From the NCBI GenBank assembly GCA_003171035.1, contig PMXR01000027.1:41040-74056 (forward strand): a stretch of 33,017 bases of DNA. The letters are read 5' to 3'. This DNA comes from Chloroflexota bacterium. GTDB lineage: Bacteria; Chloroflexota; Limnocylindria; Limnocylindrales; CSP1-4. Below are positions 23,799 through 33,017 of the stretch, piece by piece; the stretch's first letter is position 1, and each line of letters starts with the position of its first letter. The notes under the pieces were generated by a model. That model made no database searches. It worked only from the letters and a program-made list of their open reading frames with translations, and was not told the origin of the DNA. Made by a program: the position numbers and the translations under genes.

Positions 23799-24967
23799 TG
23801 ACGACCGAGACGGGCGAGATCCTTCGCGTCAGCGATCTCCGGACCTATTTTCCGGTCCGGTCCCATGCACTGATCCCGCGTGTCATCGGCCAGGTGAAGG
23901 CCGTTGACGGCGTCAGCTTCCAGGTCGGGTCCGCGGAGACGTTGGGCCTTGTCGGCGAGAGTGGGTCCGGCAAAACGACGGTTGCGAGGTCGGTGCTGAT
24001 GCTGGTCCGCCCCACCAGCGGCCAGATCGTCATCGATGGCCAGGAGATCACCCACCTCTCCCCGAAGGCACTGATGCCGATGCGCCGCAAGGCGCAGATG
24101 ATCTTCCAGGATCCGTACAACGCCCTCAACCCGCGCCATACCGTCGGGGGGATCATCGGCGCGCCGTACCGTATCCAGGGGATCGAACCACCCGGCGGTG
24201 TAAGGGCCGCGGTCCAGGCGCTCATGGAGCGGGTGGGCCTGAACCCGGAGCATTACAACCGGTACCCGAATGAGTTCTCCGGCGGGCAGCGCCAGCGGAT
24301 CGGGATCGCCCGGGCGATCGCGCTGCGGCCCAAGCTGATCGTATGCGACGAGCCGGTCTCCGCCCTCGACGTGTCGATCCAGGCCCAGATCATCAACCTC
24401 CTGCGCGACCTGCAACAGGAGTTCGGTCTCTCCTATCTGTTCGTCGCCCATGATCTCGCGGTGGTCCGCCAGATCTCGCACCGCGTCGCGGTCATGTACC
24501 TGGGCCACCTGATGGAGATGGCGCCTCGAGAGACTATCTACGCCGCGCCGCTCCACCCGTACACCCACTCGCTGCTATCGGCCGTGCCGATCCCGGACCC
24601 CAAGTTGCAGAAGGAGCGGTCCCGGATCATGCTCGAAGGTGACCTGCCGAGCCCGATCAACCCGCCCAGCGGCTGTGTGTTCCGCACTCGCTGCTTCCAG
24701 GCCCAGGAGCGCTGCAGCGTCGAGGTGCCGCCGCTCATCGAGGTGGCACCAGGTCATCAGGTCGCCTGCCACTTCCCGGTCGCGACCCTGCCTGCCGGCA
24801 TCGAGACAGCGCTAGCGACGTTGGAGAATCAGCCCGGCGTTCCGGTTCGTCGGCCCCAACCCGCCGGCGATCAAGTGAGTTCGGCGCAACTAGATCGTCT
24901 TCCGGCCGATGGCCGACCCGACTCCACGCCCGTCCGCCCTAAAGTCAGGGTCGGTCGATCTCGTTGA
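23795..24967 (+). CDS. oppF: Oligopeptide ABC transporter ATP-binding protein OppF
   Basis: GESGSGKT, FSGGQRQR, CDEPVSALDVS and GCVFRTRC...ACHF motifs. Confidence 0.92.
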
Positions 24968-27133: not shown

Positions 27134-27240
27134 AGTATCGCTTCTTCCGACATCATGTCAAGACTCTTATTCTAATACATCTTGACATGAAGACAGTCTC
27201 CTGCTACCGTGACCTAAACACTTCGAGATCAAGACTCTTA
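27134..27240. promoter_or_regulatory. Divergent sigma70-type promoters overlapped by probable MarR operators
   Basis: AT-rich segment. Plus strand: TTGACA(27182)-N17-TACCGT. Minus strand: TTGACA(27161)-N16-GATACT, 6 nt before the marR ATG. Inverted TCATGTCAAGA/TCTTGACATGA and direct TCAAGACTCTTA twice (27158 and 27229). Confidence 0.72.
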
Positions 27241-27276
27241 GGGTCGGATCACTTCACTTGAAGCGGGGCAGTACGG

Positions 27277-27501
27277 ATGATTGACACGAACGCACGCACC
27301 AGGCACGGGATGGCCGTGGTTCGCGGGTCCAGCCTCCGCGAATGGCTCGTCCGGCGCCTGGGGGAGAGTGCGGCTCGGGTCCGCGCAGATGAGCCGGGCG
27401 GCGTCGTATGCGCGGTTCAGACACGCGACGAAGTCAATGGTCTGGAGCCGTGGCACCGCGACCCGGGGGCGACACCCGCTCGGTGGGTCCGCCTCATCTG
27501 A
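27277..27501 (+). CDS. Hypothetical 74-aa protein, first ORF downstream of the MarR-divergent promoter
   Basis: ATG about 65 nt after a canonical promoter, with GCGGGG upstream; no recognisable family. Confidence 0.4.
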   Translation: MIDTNARTRHGMAVVRGSSLREWLVRRLGESAARVRADEPGGVVCAVQTRDEVNGLEPWHRDPGATPARWVRLI

Positions 27502-27560
27502 GATCGCGCCGGCGACGGCGCAGGCGCCGGAAGTGGGCCGGTTTCCGCGACAATGGTCGG

Positions 27561-28673
27561 ATGATGGGACTGCCGCGCTGGAAGCTACGTCGGGCGAGGG
27601 GCGAGGATGCACCCGCCGTCGCCGCCATGCATATCCACTCCCGGCGGTTGGCCTACCGGGGGATGGTCCCGGACGCTCACCTCGACGGCGACGATGTCGC
27701 GACGCGAGCGGCCCGCTACGACTTCGACGCCGCCGCGCCCGGCGCCCCCGAGACGTGGATCGCCGTGGACGGCGACGACGTCGTCGGCTTCGTGACCGTC
27801 GCCCCGAGCCGCGACGAGGATCTCTCCGGACTCGGCGAGGTCCGCAGCCTCTACGTCGCGCCGGACCGCTGGCGATCGGGGGTCGGGTCGGCGCTGCTCG
27901 CGCAGGCCGAGGTACTGCTCCGCGACGCGGGGTTCCACGAGGCGCACCTCTGGGTGCTCGAGGGCAACACCCGGGCACGCCGCTTCTACGAGCGGGCGGG
28001 CTGGGCGCCTGACGGCGCGCTGAAGGTCGTCGAGATCGGCGGCCGACCGCTCGCCGTGGTCAGGTATCGCAAGGCCGCGGCTGGTACCCTCGCCCCCATG
28101 GAGAACCGCCAACCCGTCGTCGCGTCGATCCGCACCGAGCGAGTGGAGCTCGTTTCGATGTCGCTTGCCTTCATGCAGGCCCTCGTCGCGGGCGACCTCG
28201 ACGCGGCTACCCGCGAGATGGGCGCCGACCTGCCGGCGGACCTCGCCGAGGACCTCCGCAACTTCTTGAACTACCGCATCCCCGACCTCGAGGCGGACCC
28301 CTCGATCCGGCCGTGGCTCGGTCGGGGCATCATCTGGAGCCACCCCAACGGGCGCCTGGAGCTCATCGGGTCGATCGGGTTCCACAACGCACCGGACGAG
28401 ACCGGCCGCGTCGAGATCGGCTACCGCATCGTGCCCCCGTTCCGGCGACGGGGGATCGTCACCGAGTGCGTCCGGGCGCTCCTCGCCTGGGCCGAGGCGC
28501 AGGGCGTCCACCGCTTCCGCGCGTCGGTCGCCCCGGGCAATGTAGCCTCGCTGGCGACCATTCGCTCCTTCGGGTTCCACCAGGTCGGCGTCCAGATCGA
28601 CGAGATCGACGGCGAGGAGCTCGTGTTCCACCTGGACCGGCCGTCCGGCGAGGCCAGCGCGGCAGGCGACTGA
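27561..28673 (+). CDS. Tandem GNAT acetyltransferase (generic GNAT plus RimJ/RimL-type GNAT in one frame)
   Basis: Domain 1: LYVAPDRWRSGVGSAL and N.RARRFYE..GW. Domain 2 (from Met at 28098): EIGYRI.PPFRRRGI and N.ASL....FGF. Confidence 0.82.
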   Translation: MMGLPRWKLRRARGEDAPAVAAMHIHSRRLAYRGMVPDAHLDGDDVATRAARYDFDAAAPGAPETWIAVDGDDVVGFVTVAPSRDEDLSGLGEVRSLYVAPDRWRSGVGSALLAQAEVLLRDAGFHEAHLWVLEGNTRARRFYERAGWAPDGALKVVEIGGRPLAVVRYRKAAAGTLAPMENRQPVVASIRTERVELVSMSLAFMQALVAGDLDAATREMGADLPADLAEDLRNFLNYRIPDLEADPSIRPWLGRGIIWSHPNGRLELIGSIGFHNAPDETGRVEIGYRIVPPFRRRGIVTECVRALLAWAEAQGVHRFRASVAPGNVASLATIRSFGFHQVGVQIDEIDGEELVFHLDRPSGEASAAGD

Positions 28674-28685
28674 CCGGGGCCGGGC

Positions 28686-29666
28686 CTACGTGTGCCCGTC
28701 GAGGAACATGCTGAGCCGCGTCCAGGTGAGACCGGGATCGACGCCCGGCGCGTGGGCGTTGACGGCCCGACACACCCAGCCGAGCCGCAGGGCGAGTCCG
28801 AAGGCCTCGCGCAACCCGGACATATCGCAGCCGGCGGCGAACGGCGCCAGGTACGCGTCGCGGTACGGGCCAGTGTCCACGGAGTCCTGGATGTCCTCGC
28901 GACCCCAGGAGATCACGCCCTCGAGGGTGACCGACATCGAGAAGAACGGGTGCGACACGCAGGCGTCGCCCCAGTCGAGGATCGCGTAGCGGCCGTCGCG
29001 CACGTACACGGCGCCGTCGTGGAGGTCGTCGTGCTGGATCGTCTCGGCGATCCCGTAGCCGGCCAGCTCTGCGCATTTCGCCGCCACCCGCGGGACGGCG
29101 TCGCGAAGTCGGCGCATCTCCTCCTCGCGACCCTTGGGGCCGTCGCGGCCGCCGCCGTCGACCGCAGCAAGCTCATCCAGCAGGGCCTCGTACCGCTTCG
29201 GCAGGACCGCGAGCCGCATGTCGGGAACTCCGAGCGCCAGCAGCACCCCCACGTCGTCGGCCGTGCCCAGCTGCATGCCGGCGTATTGCGGCAGCAGGTC
29301 GAGCCAGCGCCTGACGTCGCCCTCCTGCTCGGCCAGCTCACGCAGGCGAGCGCCGGCGTCGGCCATGAGCATCCAGCCGCGTTCGGCGTCGACAGCCAGC
29401 GGTGTCGGCACGACGTCCGGCCGGCGGCGTGCGAGGAACGCGGTGATGGCGGGCTCACGGCCGAGCGCGGGCGAGCTGGCCTTGAAGAACACCGGGCCGC
29501 GATCCGTCTGCACCCGCAGGACCGTCGACCACGGCCGCCGGTGGACCTCCTCGATCGGCCCGGTCATCCGCGCGCCGGCCGCCGCGACCTGCGCGGCGAT
29601 CCAGTAGGCAGGGTCGGTCGCCGCACCCGTCACTTCCGGACGCGCCAAACCGCCTCCGCGGGCCAT
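28686..29666 (-). CDS. Aminoglycoside phosphotransferase (APH/choline kinase-like) family protein
   Basis: PWSTVLRV..VFFKA, WMLMADAG, HDDLHD and ILDWGD..SHPF motifs. Confidence 0.82.
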   Translation of the reverse strand: MARGGGLARPEVTGAATDPAYWIAAQVAAAGARMTGPIEEVHRRPWSTVLRVQTDRGPVFFKASSPALGREPAITAFLARRRPDVVPTPLAVDAERGWMLMADAGARLRELAEQEGDVRRWLDLLPQYAGMQLGTADDVGVLLALGVPDMRLAVLPKRYEALLDELAAVDGGGRDGPKGREEEMRRLRDAVPRVAAKCAELAGYGIAETIQHDDLHDGAVYVRDGRYAILDWGDACVSHPFFSMSVTLEGVISWGREDIQDSVDTGPYRDAYLAPFAAGCDMSGLREAFGLALRLGWVCRAVNAHAPGVDPGLTWTRLSMFLDGHT

Positions 29667-29674
29667 CGGCGGGC

Positions 29675-29740
29675 CTACGCGAGCGCCTCGGCCGAGTTGT
29701 AGGTGCTCGTGGCATCACCGAGGACGTGCAGCTCAACCAT
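29675..29740 (-). CDS. 21-aa leaderless mini-ORF (MVELHVLGDATSTYNSAEALA) upstream of the APH gene; uORF or deletion remnant
   Basis: TACAAT (29752-29747) lies 6 nt before the ATG; GC-rich third codon positions; stop 8 nt before the APH ATG. Confidence 0.45.
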   Translation of the reverse strand: MVELHVLGDATSTYNSAEALA

Positions 29741-29988
29741 CGGCGGATTGTACCCCGCCCCTCCGCGCAAGACCGCCGACCAGGCGGTCGCCCGGCTTCC
29801 GGGCCGACCAGTGGGCGACGGATCGGAAGCCGCCCCATTCGCAGCCCGTATTCAGAAGATCTCACCGGATGCGAGGCCTGCTTCGAATCCGGGGACACAA
29901 GGGATTGACAGATGTGGTGTTGCCCGCAGCATGAAGCGAGCGCACGGCATCCGGCGGGCCAGACGGGCGCTATCGGAGGAGTGGAACC

Positions 29989-30207
29989 ATGAGTTTTAGC
30001 TTCCCCGGAGGGGGAGACCGCCACAATCCCGGCAGCCTCAACCCTGGGACGGGTGGCGACCGGGATCCCATCAAGCCGTACCACGACGAGATCTCGTACC
30101 AGGCCCAACACACAGCGGATCTCGAACGGGAAGACGCTGAAGGCAAGAAGCGTCTCCCCTCGAGACTCATCGGCCGCTTGCTGGGGACCCTTCGCAGCTT
30201 GTTCTGA
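29989..30207 (+). CDS. Hypothetical 72-aa protein
   Basis: GGGAGA RBS and upstream TTGACA (29905); internal PG(G/TG)GDR repeat and amphipathic basic C-terminal helix. Confidence 0.5.
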   Translation: MSFSFPGGGDRHNPGSLNPGTGGDRDPIKPYHDEISYQAQHTADLEREDAEGKKRLPSRLIGRLLGTLRSLF

Positions 30208-30641
30208 GACGGTCGGCCTTCGGAGGGGGACGTCGAGGTCGACCGCCGCGAGTGACTCTTGCAGTGGGTCCCTCTGCACTGACGCCGCGTCTTGACGGCG
30301 GTGATACCCGGCAACACCACGACCCAATTGACCCCAGTTAAGGCCAGTAAGGCGGAACTGCCTCCGTCTACCAGAGAACCGGGTCGTCGCCGTCCGGCCC
30401 GGGCCGTCGGGCGCAGTGAACGAAACGGGGACGCCGGCCATCGTATTGGTCATGGAGCGAGCGATTGGCAGAACGGCCTTGACGTTACGGAGGGAATCGG
30501 TGGCCATCGAGCCGAACGACGAACGGACCCGACGGTCCGGACCGCGCCGACGGCGCAGCTGCTCGCGGAGGCCGTCGGCCGCGCCCCGGCGCGAGTCTCG
30601 GTCAGGGTTGAGGGATCTTGTGGACCACCAAGGCCCGCGCT

Positions 30642-30724
30642 CACGCGTTCGCGGCGGCCGTGCCGGCATAGTTCAAGGCATCTGTTGGATATGGTCGGGG
30701 CGAGAGTGTCGGGGCGAGAGGACT
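30642..30724 (-). repeat. Direct repeat copy 1 ending in a tRNA-Pro 3' fragment (att-like), plus an adjacent second fragment
   Basis: 30642-30706 matches 32339-32403 at 61/65 nt. TGGTCGGGGCGAGAG (30692-30706) is the reverse complement of CTCTCGCCCCGACCA. GTCGGGGCGAGAGGACT is repeated at 30708-30724. Confidence 0.82.
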
Positions 30725-30896
30725 AGAGGCTTCGCTTTCGAACTGACCTATGTGATGGCGCTGGCTGCCGGGCCGGTAGTCGAGGTGGCGTAGTCAACGC
30801 CGACGGGAGTCGAGGCCGAGATAACGAGCTAGCCGCCCCGGGAGGTCGACGTTTCGCCCTGGGCGACTCAACTCTCGGGTTGTTGGTCGGGCGTCC

Positions 30897-32041
30897 CTAC
30901 CCCGCGTTGAAGATTTTCGCGGATATGCCTTCAAGGATCGTCTGTACGGCCGCGCTGTACTGGTTACTCAGGATGATGACCGTGACAGCGTCGACTGGGT
31001 AGCGCGCCTCAATCGATGCGAAGCCCGAGATAGCACCGTCATGCCAGATGATCGGCCGTCCGGAGTCGGTCCCGATCACGAAGCCATAACCGTAGCCGGC
31101 TGCCATCGTCCCATACTGGGGGGCGAACATCTCGGCGCGGGACGCCGCGGGCAGGAGCGCATCCGTCGTGAGCGCCTGCTCCCATCGGTTCATATCCTCG
31201 ACCGTGGAATATAGGCCGCCGGCCGCGAATGGGACCGACGGGTCTATTGGCACGGCCGGCGTCGCAGAATATCCATTCGTATACCCAATCGCCACACCGT
31301 TCGAGTTGTGGTCATAGCCGGTGTCGCTCAGATTCAGAGGCGTGAAGATGTACTTCTGCAGGAATGCCTCGTAGCTCATGCCGGAGACCTGCTCGATGAT
31401 GTAGCCCAGCAGGATGTAGCCGGAGTTGCTGTACGCCCAGGTCGTGCCGGGCGCGAAGTCCAGCGGTAGATCCCGAAAGTGGGCGATGATCTGCAGGGGA
31501 GTCGAGGGCTGGCCTTCGTAATCGACGAAGTCGGGCTGCGCCAGATAGTCGGGGATGCCGGACGTGTGCGTCAGGAGCTCCTTGATCGTGATGACACCCC
31601 AGGCAGTCGGACATTGGGGGATGTAAGTGCAGATGAGGTCGGTGACCTTGAGCTTGCCCTGAACCTGGAGCAGCAGGATGGCCGCAGCCGTGAACTGCTT
31701 GGTGTTGGAGCCGATAAGAAACCTGGTCTGCGGGCCGTTGGGGGTCTTCTGGTCGCGGTCGGCAAAGCCGTAGCCTTGCTCAGGAGCACGTGTCCATGTT
31801 GGGCGATCAGCACCGAGCCGCTGAACAGCGACTGCGAAGTCATGTTGGCGAGCATGGCGTCGACGGCCGAAATGGCGTCCGGCGAGATGGCGGTCGACGA
31901 CGGCGAGCTTCCGATCGAAGGCGCGACGCTGGTGGCTGAGGAGGCCGAACTCGGCGTCACCTTTGGCGGAGCCGCCGGGGAGCAAGCGGAGACGATCAGG
32001 AAGATCCCGCAGATTGCCAGCAGTGCACGTTGATGTCGCAT
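30897..32041 (-). pseudogene. Serine hydrolase (class C beta-lactamase/PBP-like) lipoprotein with a 1-nt frameshift at about 31774
   Basis: GAGGGGAG RBS, lipobox VSAC and FSGSVLIA..G..LLSK in one frame; GYGFAD, SxxK (SNTK), LLTHTSG, YSN and HDG in another. AAG-GC-TAC lacks one G. Confidence 0.85.
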
Positions 32042-32307
32042 TGGGCACTCCCCTCGAGGACGGACGGCGAAGTAAGTTCGCCACGACACGCGACGGGGCT
32101 CGTTGGAGCCCGACTCCAGGTCCGCGCAGCCGGTCCGCGTGGTGTGAGCGGCCTACAAGCACCCTGTCATCATTGCCCCGCCAGGTAGACTCGCGGTTCG
32201 GCGTCGCGGTTCGGTCCGCTCTTCACCGGTCTCCGAATTGACCTGGACCAGGTATTGAGCCGACTGGGACGCGAGCTGGTCGTCCGGAGGGGGCGAGCAT
32301 ATCGATT

Positions 32308-32405
32308 GGCGACCGATAGGCGACCGATAGGCCGCGCACACGCGTTCGCGGCGGCCGTGCCGGCGCAGTTCACGGCATTTGTTGGATATGGTCGGGGCGA
32401 GAGGA
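32308..32405 (-). repeat. Direct repeat copy 2 ending in a tRNA-Pro 3' fragment (att-like), preceded by a tandem 11-mer
   Basis: TGGTCGGGGCGAGAGGA (32389-32405) is the reverse complement of TCCTCTCGCCCCGACCA; GGCGACCGATA occurs twice at 32308-32329. Confidence 0.82.
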
Positions 32406-32665
32406 GCCAAACCGACCGTACGGCCTGAATGTCCCACTCGCGCTTGCGTGCGAGGTTGATGGCATGGTGCGGTGGCTGGACCAGGTCCAGTAAGGCCGGC
32501 GACTCGCGGCGGTCGCTCGGCCAGCGGCCAGCCGAGGAACGCGGTCGCACCGGCCGGGCCATCAGGCGCAAGTGCGCCGCAATCGCTTGACAGGGGCCCT
32601 CGCACCTGCCATGAAAGACAACTAGTTTCCATTGTGAAGAAAGTAGCGGCTAGGGGGAGAGAAGA

Positions 32666-33017
32666 ATGATCCAGCGATCGCTCAGTGGACTCGCCTTGAT
32701 GGGTGGGGCCCTGATCCTCAGCCTGGCCCTGGGTGGATGCCAGGCGTCGACCGCCACCCCAACACCGACCGCCACTCCGGTGCCGACCGACACTCCAACG
32801 CCGGCGCCTACGCCCACGGTGGCGCCAACGCAAACACCAACGCCCACCGCCACGCCGACCGACACTCCAACGCCGGCGCCCACGCTCGCCCCCACGCCGA
32901 CGGCCGCGCCCTCGCTGCCGACCTCGGTCGCGGCGTGCACCGGAAGCAACTCGATCAAACAGACGTTCGCCAATCAGATCGCCAAGCTCAAGTTCGCCCT
33001 GTACTGCCCGGTCCTCC
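32666..33017 (+). CDS. Pro/Thr-repeat lipoprotein, 3'-truncated by the window
   Basis: GGGGGAG RBS; [25 protein letters not shown] lipobox followed by TPTP/ATP/PTD repeats; frame open to the window end. Confidence 0.8.

Follow-up and report, generated by a model that had tools for sequence, protein, structure and literature searches.

Probable remnants, in tandem, of two integrative elements from a large serine recombinase family that would target tRNA-Pro(CGG), at the right end of a Limnocylindrales sequence

We analysed a 33,017-nt stretch of DNA (the window) from a Chloroflexota bacterium of the order Limnocylindrales, namely positions 41,040 to 74,056 of contig C17 (PMXR01000027.1) of a metagenome-assembled genome (MAG; GCA_003171035.1, here G000) that comprises 145 contigs and is 79% complete. 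At the right end of the window a pair of direct repeats encloses a serine hydrolase gene, and our comparisons suggest, with a probability that we put at about 0.85, that this region is what remains of two decayed integrative elements, lying in tandem and belonging to one large serine recombinase (LSR) family whose attachment (att) site is tRNA-Pro(CGG). The recombinase stubs, a fragment of the replication initiator RepSA, the element tails and the lesions they carry are identified by direct comparison, as is the architecture of the elements in relatives, and two separate integrations would have built the array. Coordinates of the individual features are collected in Table 1.

The repeat had been noticed in an earlier reading of the sequence alone (the sequence-only reading) as a 65-nt pair with 61/65 identical positions, which is correct within those limits, while our repeat search gives a true length of 72 nt (30635-30706 and 32332-32403; 67/72 identical, or 93%) and a start-to-start distance of 1697 nt. 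Copy 2 terminates in the exact reverse complement of TCCTCTCGCCCCGACCA, and this 17-mer, hereafter the core, is the true 3' end of the tRNA-Pro(CGG) of the same genome, located by ARAGORN on contig C126 at c[6631,6707]. The tRNA-Pro end proposed earlier is thereby confirmed, as is one of the Islander signatures, by which a direct repeat must equal the 3' end of one of the genome's own tRNA genes. In copy 1 the core is disrupted by a tandem duplication of 14 nt, which shifts the recombinase frame relative to the tail. With up to two mismatches allowed, the core occurs three times in the window, against 0.03 occurrences expected from 100 shuffles, and Logan contigs of independent public runs match the local structure with 0 differences. 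A search of positions 29000-33017 against Rfam, with E up to 1, gave no match. LSRs recombine attP with attB at a central dinucleotide and need a directionality factor for excision; here the point of crossover is hidden, the entire 17-nt core being common to all junction types.

The DNA next to the core points to the nature of the elements. Antisense to the tRNA, both repeat copies encode ...RAHAFAAAVPAQFTAFVGY-GRGER, and open reading frames (ORFs) of 496-519 codons in congeners enter the core in the same phase as these stubs. Stub 1 matches residues 497-529 of the intact LSR of G057:C274 at 24/33 positions, the stop included (72.7%, E 3.9e-10; tblastn, 6.1-kb contig end), and stub 2 matches residues 501-524 of the intact LSR at 22/24 (tblastn, E 1.2e-9; BLASTP 14/16, E 3e-5). 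The roughly 50 bp that were known to be conserved beyond the CCA end, and had been attributed to an element-derived arm, are thus the 3' stub of an LSR gene, comprising about its last 18-19 codons (some 55-57 nt); the attribution is borne out, with LSR coding sequence as the arm. Intact relatives of the stub are about 500 aa long and combine PF00239 with PF07508, as do two LSRs on contig C114 of the studied genome, so that both have the resolvase catalytic domain and recombinase domain, within about 450-700 aa, by which LSR elements are recognised; the window keeps the last 19-24 codons. The catalytic residues R-x-S-x-x-x-Q are invariant (R25/S27/Q31), the catalytic domain matches PDB entry 3g13 (E 1e-9) and PhiC31 integrase (E 3.5e-4), and an ESM Atlas search returned generic recombinase clusters only.

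The association of LSR gene and core was then examined independently of the window, with a profile built from six LSRs that retrieved 68 loci from public MAGs, all titled Ca. Limnocylindrales, Chloroflexota or Chloroflexia except three otherwise labelled. At 58 of these loci the assembly passed the gene end and could be evaluated (10 of 68 could not), and 57 of the 58 carried an antisense core within 200 nt of the expected LSR gene end; the remaining locus, L132, had no core. In 24 of the 57 core-bearing loci the core belongs to an intact tRNA-Pro gene. As the 58 loci are mutually related, the count describes a family trait and not independent events. The core was also found at the LSR gene 3' end in five congener genomes.

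Complete elements of the stub's LSR subtype, from G012:C90 (6.8 kb) and G053:C165 (7.0 kb), have the order core, LSR, RepSA, cargo, E-type tail and core, and a deleted element of 2.7 kb in G066:C4 has an LSR-RepSA fusion and retains the E-type tail. This tail closes all three LSR3/RepSA elements that have a readable far end. The 1.7-kb hydrolase unit of the window is bounded in the same manner, with an LSR stub adjoining core 2 and an E-type tail (...GFAFELTYVMALAAGPVVEVA and stop) adjoining core 1, and because these ends match the cognate pair of the complete LSR/RepSA elements, the unit is most plausibly an internally deleted element from which LSR and RepSA have been lost. The description of the unit as integrase-less is therefore only superficially true, considering that its arm is a stub of an LSR gene and its ends are those of a 6.8-7.0 kb LSR/RepSA element. 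The E-type tail of the window comes into phase with the LSR frame once the 14-nt duplication is removed, and it belongs to the tail family reading ...FQLxYxI...EVA and stop, with the stop at codon 28-29.

Only one gene with a Pfam match, the PF00144 hydrolase, lies between the repeat copies, as had been stated. The loss of one nucleotide at 31774-31775 makes it a pseudogene; the orthologous genes of G022 (intact, 395 aa) and G012 contain an additional C/G there. Among the 22 public runs listed, all of them peat or permafrost metagenomes assembled as Logan contigs, we compared the contigs of X1, X2, X3 and X5, of which X1-X3 contain this strain at 92-96% of sampled words; the deleted allele recurs with 0 differences in contigs of X1, X2 and X3, which argues that the frameshift is not an assembly slip. 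Beyond core 2, the A-type tail reads ...SQTDRTA and stop, and then, in another frame, LNVPLALACEVDGMVRWLDQVQ and stop, while the 13 other A tails have a single frame with the stop at codon 35-36. Further to the right, positions 32666-33017 (continuing to C17:74382) hold a lipoprotein gene with a Pro/Thr-rich linker of imperfect 18-nt repeats (32738-32917) and no Pfam match.

Table 1. Features at the right end of the window (positions are those of the 33,017-nt stretch)
Feature	Position	Strand	Basis or remark
Decayed island DNA without recognisable gene, probable interior of left-hand element	29830..30522	.	Synteny break, null searches
RepSA (pSAM2-type replication initiator) pseudogene fragment, apparently fused to LSR stub by deletion	30523..30625	+	DNA and BLASTP matches
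LSR 3' stub, copy 1 (last ~19 codons), in-frame TAG at 30669-30671	30635..30691	+	tblastn match to intact LSR
tRNA-Pro(CGG) 3'-end core, copy 1, disrupted	30692..30722	-	14-nt tandem duplication, 30694-30707 / 30708-30721
E-type tail, putative P arm of hydrolase-bearing element	30722..30793	+	23-codon open frame and stop
Serine hydrolase lipoprotein pseudogene (beta-lactamase fold, SxxK = SNTK)	30897..32041	-	PF00144, E 5e-64
LSR 3' stub, copy 2 (19 codons, ...RAHAFAAAVPAQFTAFVGY)	32332..32388	+	tblastn and BLASTP
tRNA-Pro(CGG) 3'-end core, copy 2, exact 17-mer	32389..32405	-	Identical to final 17 nt of C126 tRNA-Pro(CGG)
A-type tail, putative P arm of next element rightward, broken by 1-nt deletion	32406..32493	+	Tail comparison

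To the left of core 1, synteny with G009 (92-95% identity over window positions 27188-29686 and 29733-29829) ends at 29829, and the ORFs of the following segment (29830-30522) have no Pfam match, nor does the segment have a match in Rfam. Next to it lies a 103-nt stretch with 73-83% DNA identity to many congener loci, where it is found inside ORFs of about 500 aa, one of which matches PF20199 (RepSA) at E 7.6e-135; the window fragment is identical to RepSA residues 313-337 at 21/25 positions (BLASTP, E 3e-8). In G042, G012 and G066, too, RepSA is fused to LSR by deletions, whose end points differ. These matches point to a second, ruined element of the right-hand one's type in 29830-30634, which would explain why this kilobase seems empty. 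We considered and rejected the idea that 29630-30620 holds a decayed full-length LSR; the tblastn matches were weak and only partly colinear (E 0.01-0.09) and are not counted. Within the same region, positions 30307-30433 are 83% identical to G000:C75:10944-11074 (minus strand), in a unit downstream of another Pro core, and this segment is another island-associated module; a contig found in X1 and X2 runs directly from a core and the start of a B-type tail into window position 30346.

The sequences upstream of the cores fall into five families, A-E, each open in the LSR phase and ending at a fixed stop codon (codon 35-36 in A, 34 in B, 47 in C, 29-30 in D and 28-29 in E). Conservation collapses directly past the stop, and the tail families are conserved between species beside different cargo. 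A codon-position test found a modest third-position excess in families A and B and none in D and E. The tails may be coding and would then complete the recombinase in the excised circle. In at least three genomes there is also a mini-unit in which a degenerate core is followed by some 175 nt (584 nt in C75) and then by a C-type tail and another core (G000:C100:6283-6477, C75:5301-5901, L015:2139-2330 and L030); such a unit looks like an element of which the two ends are left.

On this basis we propose that the family integrates at the 3' end of tRNA-Pro(CGG) by means of its LSR. The LSR gene would lie beside attL, antisense to the tRNA, with its last codons (..VGYGRGER..) encoded by the att core, which would place attP inside the 3' end of the recombinase gene. 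Integration would put the element's own tail at the far junction, and the LSR would then read into whatever sequence lies upstream; beside the tRNA its natural C-terminus is ..GRGERI and stop, and at other junctions it would carry E, A, B or C tails. In the right-hand element, an internal deletion would have removed LSR and RepSA and left an LSR stub, the frameshifted hydrolase and the E tail within 1.7 kb; in the left-hand element, a stub with a stop codon would have become fused to the RepSA fragment, with the far end lost.

The wider distribution of the core is consistent with such elements. With up to two mismatches, G000 has 22 matches to the 17-mer on 11 contigs, representing the tRNA itself and 20 junctions, one of them doubled, and three contigs break at a core. 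Of 24 further genomes of the genus, 22 contain the core, in as many as 21 copies each, and a reversed control pattern gave 0 matches in every genome examined. Copies cluster as arrays of one orientation, for example in G015:C10, where an intact tRNA-Pro(CGG) and the seven additional cores behind it lie within 24 kb; isolated copies at wide spacing also occur in long assemblies (G021). The second Islander signature, an intact tRNA gene at the array end, is present in the congeners G015:C10, G006:C14 and G010:C23, and serial integration at att junctions made of the tRNA-Pro(CGG) 3' end, as the sequence-only reading had proposed, is supported by these arrays. In a sister family with genomes of 1.0-1.4 Mb, all nine core matches (five genomes) are intact tRNA-Pro(CGG) or tRNA-Pro(TGG) genes, and these streamlined genomes appear free of the islands; there (L151-L159; G025-G028, G032), tRNA-Pro(CGG) is followed by tRNA-Arg(TCG) at 5/5 loci, with no tRNA-Pro fragments. 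G015 has two identical tRNA-Pro(CGG) genes, C9:24562-24638 and C10:234602-234678 (L022, L025); one stands at the head of an LSR pseudogene, the other at that of an array of eight cores where 26 kb contain no intact LSR.

The two intact LSRs of the studied genome, both on C114, are of other subtypes, with 45-58% identity to the stub's type and different 3' arms. Both have a Pro core across their ends and stand first in tandem elements measuring 13.2 and 9.1 kb. These lie beside holB at C114:38600-61000 (L014 covers 35000-54999), with cores at 38709, 51892 and 60946; the first encodes the LSR, a RepSA-like protein, three DNA methylases, a BglII-type nuclease and an SMC-like ATPase, and the second the LSR and an AAA_25 protein. 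At the head of the array is a tRNA-Pro-like sequence that ARAGORN does not call, its T arm and acceptor 3' strand being intact and its 5' half degenerate. A tblastn search with the C114 LSRs (E up to 1) found no LSR remnants near other cores of G000, and an unfiltered run gave noise. Elsewhere, a distant LSR (25-31% identity) at C89:24017-26233 has an ORF running antisense through an entire tRNA-Leu(TAG) (24437-24522), and another (39% identity) lies beside tRNA-Arg(CCG) on G006:C18; LSRs that target tRNA genes may be general in the lineage.

Several observations weigh against our interpretation. ARAGORN calls no tRNA gene either in the window or in the 2,052 nt of C17 still left beyond it, where an intact tRNA-Pro and further repeat copies had been predicted; that prediction fails for this remainder of the contig, the tRNA gene being on C126. 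Without an intact tRNA at the head of the array within the contig, attachment at the tRNA locus is presumptive for this genome, and G000 is itself a MAG of 145 contigs and 79% completeness. (A join of the C17 end to the C126 start, an idea taken from gene content, was rejected, as the TetR genes lie on opposite strands relative to the tRNA.) The far end of the left-hand element, that is its tail and core, was not found down to 29830 with up to four mismatches. Catalysis by the LSR at the core is suggested by gene position, not by observed recombination. Moreover, 3 of 16 aligned stubs (the two here and one in G015:C10) lose their similarity to the LSR within about 3 nt of the same point, and this common truncation point suggests the spread of an already truncated arm, or gene conversion, better than independent deletions. 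Finally, 11 of the 20 non-tRNA cores of G000 are followed by a conserved hairpin arm and no LSR stub, which simple decay does not explain. This arm reads TTCRGGTAGG-N5-7-CCTACC and shows compensatory changes (GTAGC/GCTAC, GGCAGG/CCTGCC); it may be the flank that natively lies downstream of the tRNA, or else the arm of an element family without a recombinase. In G000 it occurs on C15, C55, C75, C100, C114 and C126, with compensatory changes also in G007 and G006, and the units carrying it contain no recombinase, encoding instead ABC transporters, PadR, toxin-antitoxin pairs, two-component systems and kelch/extracytoplasmic function (ECF) sigma pairs.

Such units raise the idea that recombinase-less, core-bounded DNA forms a non-autonomous pool shuffled in trans by resident LSRs, with the junction-specific tail setting the C-terminus of the LSR and hence its activity or directionality. 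We regard this as rather unlikely; were it true, the pool would be the serine-recombinase counterpart of the integron.

Applied to the window itself, the corresponding explanation, already favoured in the sequence-only reading, is that the 1.7-kb unit is a functional minimal cassette with attL and attR, excised and re-inserted in trans by the LSRs of autonomous elements, so that the array grows in an integron-like manner or by accretion. Most core-bounded units of G000 indeed have no recombinase, with an intact LSR at only 2 of the 20 junctions, and two intact LSR elements are present in the same genome, on C114; in addition, the 72-nt stub boundary is the same in three copies from two species with differing neighbouring DNA, the tail families are kept across species next to different cargo, and the same proposal has been made for integrase-less ssrA islands by McMurdie et al. 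(PMC3146451). On the other hand, the neighbour on the stub side, core 1, the A tail and the cargo gene have each suffered mutation, with a TAG in stub 1, the 14-nt duplication in core 1 and frameshifts in the A tail and the hydrolase, and the LSRs of G000 are of other subtypes with different 3' arms. In relatives the hydrolase is found in other contexts. The G012 copy (89% identity) is inverted and has no second bounding core; because it lies beside a junction of RepSA fragment, LSR stub and core, it is cargo of the LSR/RepSA element type there too. The G022 copy (88% identity) is flanked on one side by DNA resembling C17:74722-75004 and on the other by a kelch/sigma pair similar to the one on C104, with no core in the 3.1 kb read, at up to three mismatches, and in both genomes homology is limited to the hydrolase gene itself.

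The metagenomic contigs point the same way. Those of all four runs bridge both junctions as in the window, and no precise core-to-core deletion, circle or empty-site joint was found in them, bearing in mind that contigs cannot exclude rare forms. The other joints match arrangements seen in relatives: 30600>32368 and 30548>30828 (opposite strands) correspond to the G012-type arrangement, and 30616>32319 (one contig, whose shorter side has 69 nt) and 32405>30812 (with three letters between) are best read as relatives' variants. Nor was an empty site found in G009, where no core lies within 1.28 kb beyond the end of synteny and nothing matches the right flank of the window. With lesions in stub, core, tail and cargo and no excision joint in the contigs compared, we found no evidence for mobilisation in trans, and we consider the cassette explanation distinctly unlikely; the remnants are probably immobile now.

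A dispersed repeat of the repetitive extragenic palindrome (REP) or miniature inverted-repeat transposable element (MITE) kind, or a tRNA-derived regulatory repeat acting as a terminator or processing signal with no site-specific integration, might be suspected from the scatter of the 22 core matches over G000 contigs, from the copy number in congeners (up to 21), from the single distant copies in G021 and from the covarying hairpin after many cores. We think it very improbable, since copies within arrays share their orientation and start from an intact tRNA, cores coincide with LSR gene ends, the flanks form discrete arm families, as expected for attL/attR hybrids, the Rfam search was null, and the sister family holds only real tRNA genes. 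Least credible of all are classical tRNA islands of a tyrosine integrase that has since been lost, with the LSR association incidental: direct repeats of at least 17 nt from a tRNA 3' end are typical of these, and the Islander paper (PMC4383910) states that serine integrases were not known at tRNA genes, but the arm is LSR coding sequence, the core lies at the LSR gene end in 57/58 loci, and the PF00589 matches of G000 (on C142, C2, C37, C144, C38 and C97:35.3 kb) are neither on C17 nor adjoining a Pro core.

The preferred reading, two decayed elements of an LSR family at tRNA-Pro(CGG), has a close precedent. The system had been put forward as undescribed, a claim that does not stand beside the ssrA genomic islands (ssrA-GIs) of Dehalococcoides, which have the same architecture and are the closest precedent: these islands stand in tandem, delimited by 20 bp repeated from the tmRNA 3' end, and have a serine recombinase, DsiB, while many are without an integration module and have been proposed to be either fixed or mobilisable in cis (McMurdie et al. 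2011, PMC3146451). Both families have Chloroflexota hosts and tandem islands downstream of a tRNA or tmRNA gene, bounded by repeats of its 3' end; both encode a serine recombinase of about 500-540 aa on the reverse strand beside attL, its 3' end overlapping attL (here in 57/58 loci) and its stop codon set by the upstream sequence; and in both many islands have no integration module. The likeness is one of architecture. The ssrA-GIs target tmRNA with a 20-nt core, the present family tRNA-Pro(CGG) with a 17-nt core. The ssrA-GI six-gene module (DsiB, DsiA, RecF-like, ParB and Mom with an embedded tRNA-like gene) was not found here, where RepSA follows the LSR, and the present cores, with up to 21 per genome at several loci, exceed the ssrA-GIs in copy number. 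PF00239 matches in G000 are confined to C89, C81 and the two LSRs of C114, beside which there is no second, small serine recombinase and so no DsiA-like partner.

Integrative and conjugative elements from actinomycetes (AICEs) of the pSAM2 type are small elements at tRNA 3' ends, tRNA-Pro being the target of pSAM2 itself, and they use a tyrosine integrase with Xis. The present family resembles them in size (about 7-13 kb), in its place at a tRNA 3' end and in a RepSA-family initiator (PF20199), whereas it uses an LSR, with no PF00589 gene near any Pro core, and has a Chloroflexota host and not an actinomycete. No FtsK/SpoIIIE-type transfer gene was found in the C114 elements; PF01580 occurs in G000 on C18 (above the cut-off) and C122 (weak). 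The SSV-type integrases of archaeal viruses and plasmids are tyrosine recombinases with attP inside the gene, which integration splits and inactivates. Here, too, the recombination site would lie within the recombinase gene and match a tRNA gene, but where the SSV-type gene is split into two large parts, the present LSR would exchange only its last 6-46 codons and keep the catalytic body intact. Repeated partial tRNA sequences delimit successive islands at one tRNA gene in Islander/TIGER arrays and tycheposons as they do here; the Islander set (PMC4383910) comprises 3919 islands with tyrosine integrases only, including 125 tandems of at least two and only four of at least three, whereas the present arrays reach eight cores and are tied to a serine recombinase. 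The region does not resemble an integron, as no tyrosine recombinase is found on C17 and the boundaries are tRNA-derived cores and recombinase stubs, not attC hairpins.

For the window, our interpretation amounts to a genomic fossil that would explain the repeat, the pseudogene and about 1 kb of apparently empty DNA. Our literature search found no paper pairing an LSR with tRNA-Pro, nor one on mobile elements of Limnocylindria, and serine integrases were not known to target tRNA genes according to the Islander paper (PMC4383910); the present family would extend the Dehalococcoides ssrA precedent to a true tRNA. A single LSR family at tRNA-Pro(CGG) appears to be among the main contributors of accessory DNA to Limnocylindrales of peat and soil, where it breaks assemblies at its cores. 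It would also offer natural LSR/att pairs with attP inside the recombinase gene, which makes regulation by a swapped C-terminus a testable question.

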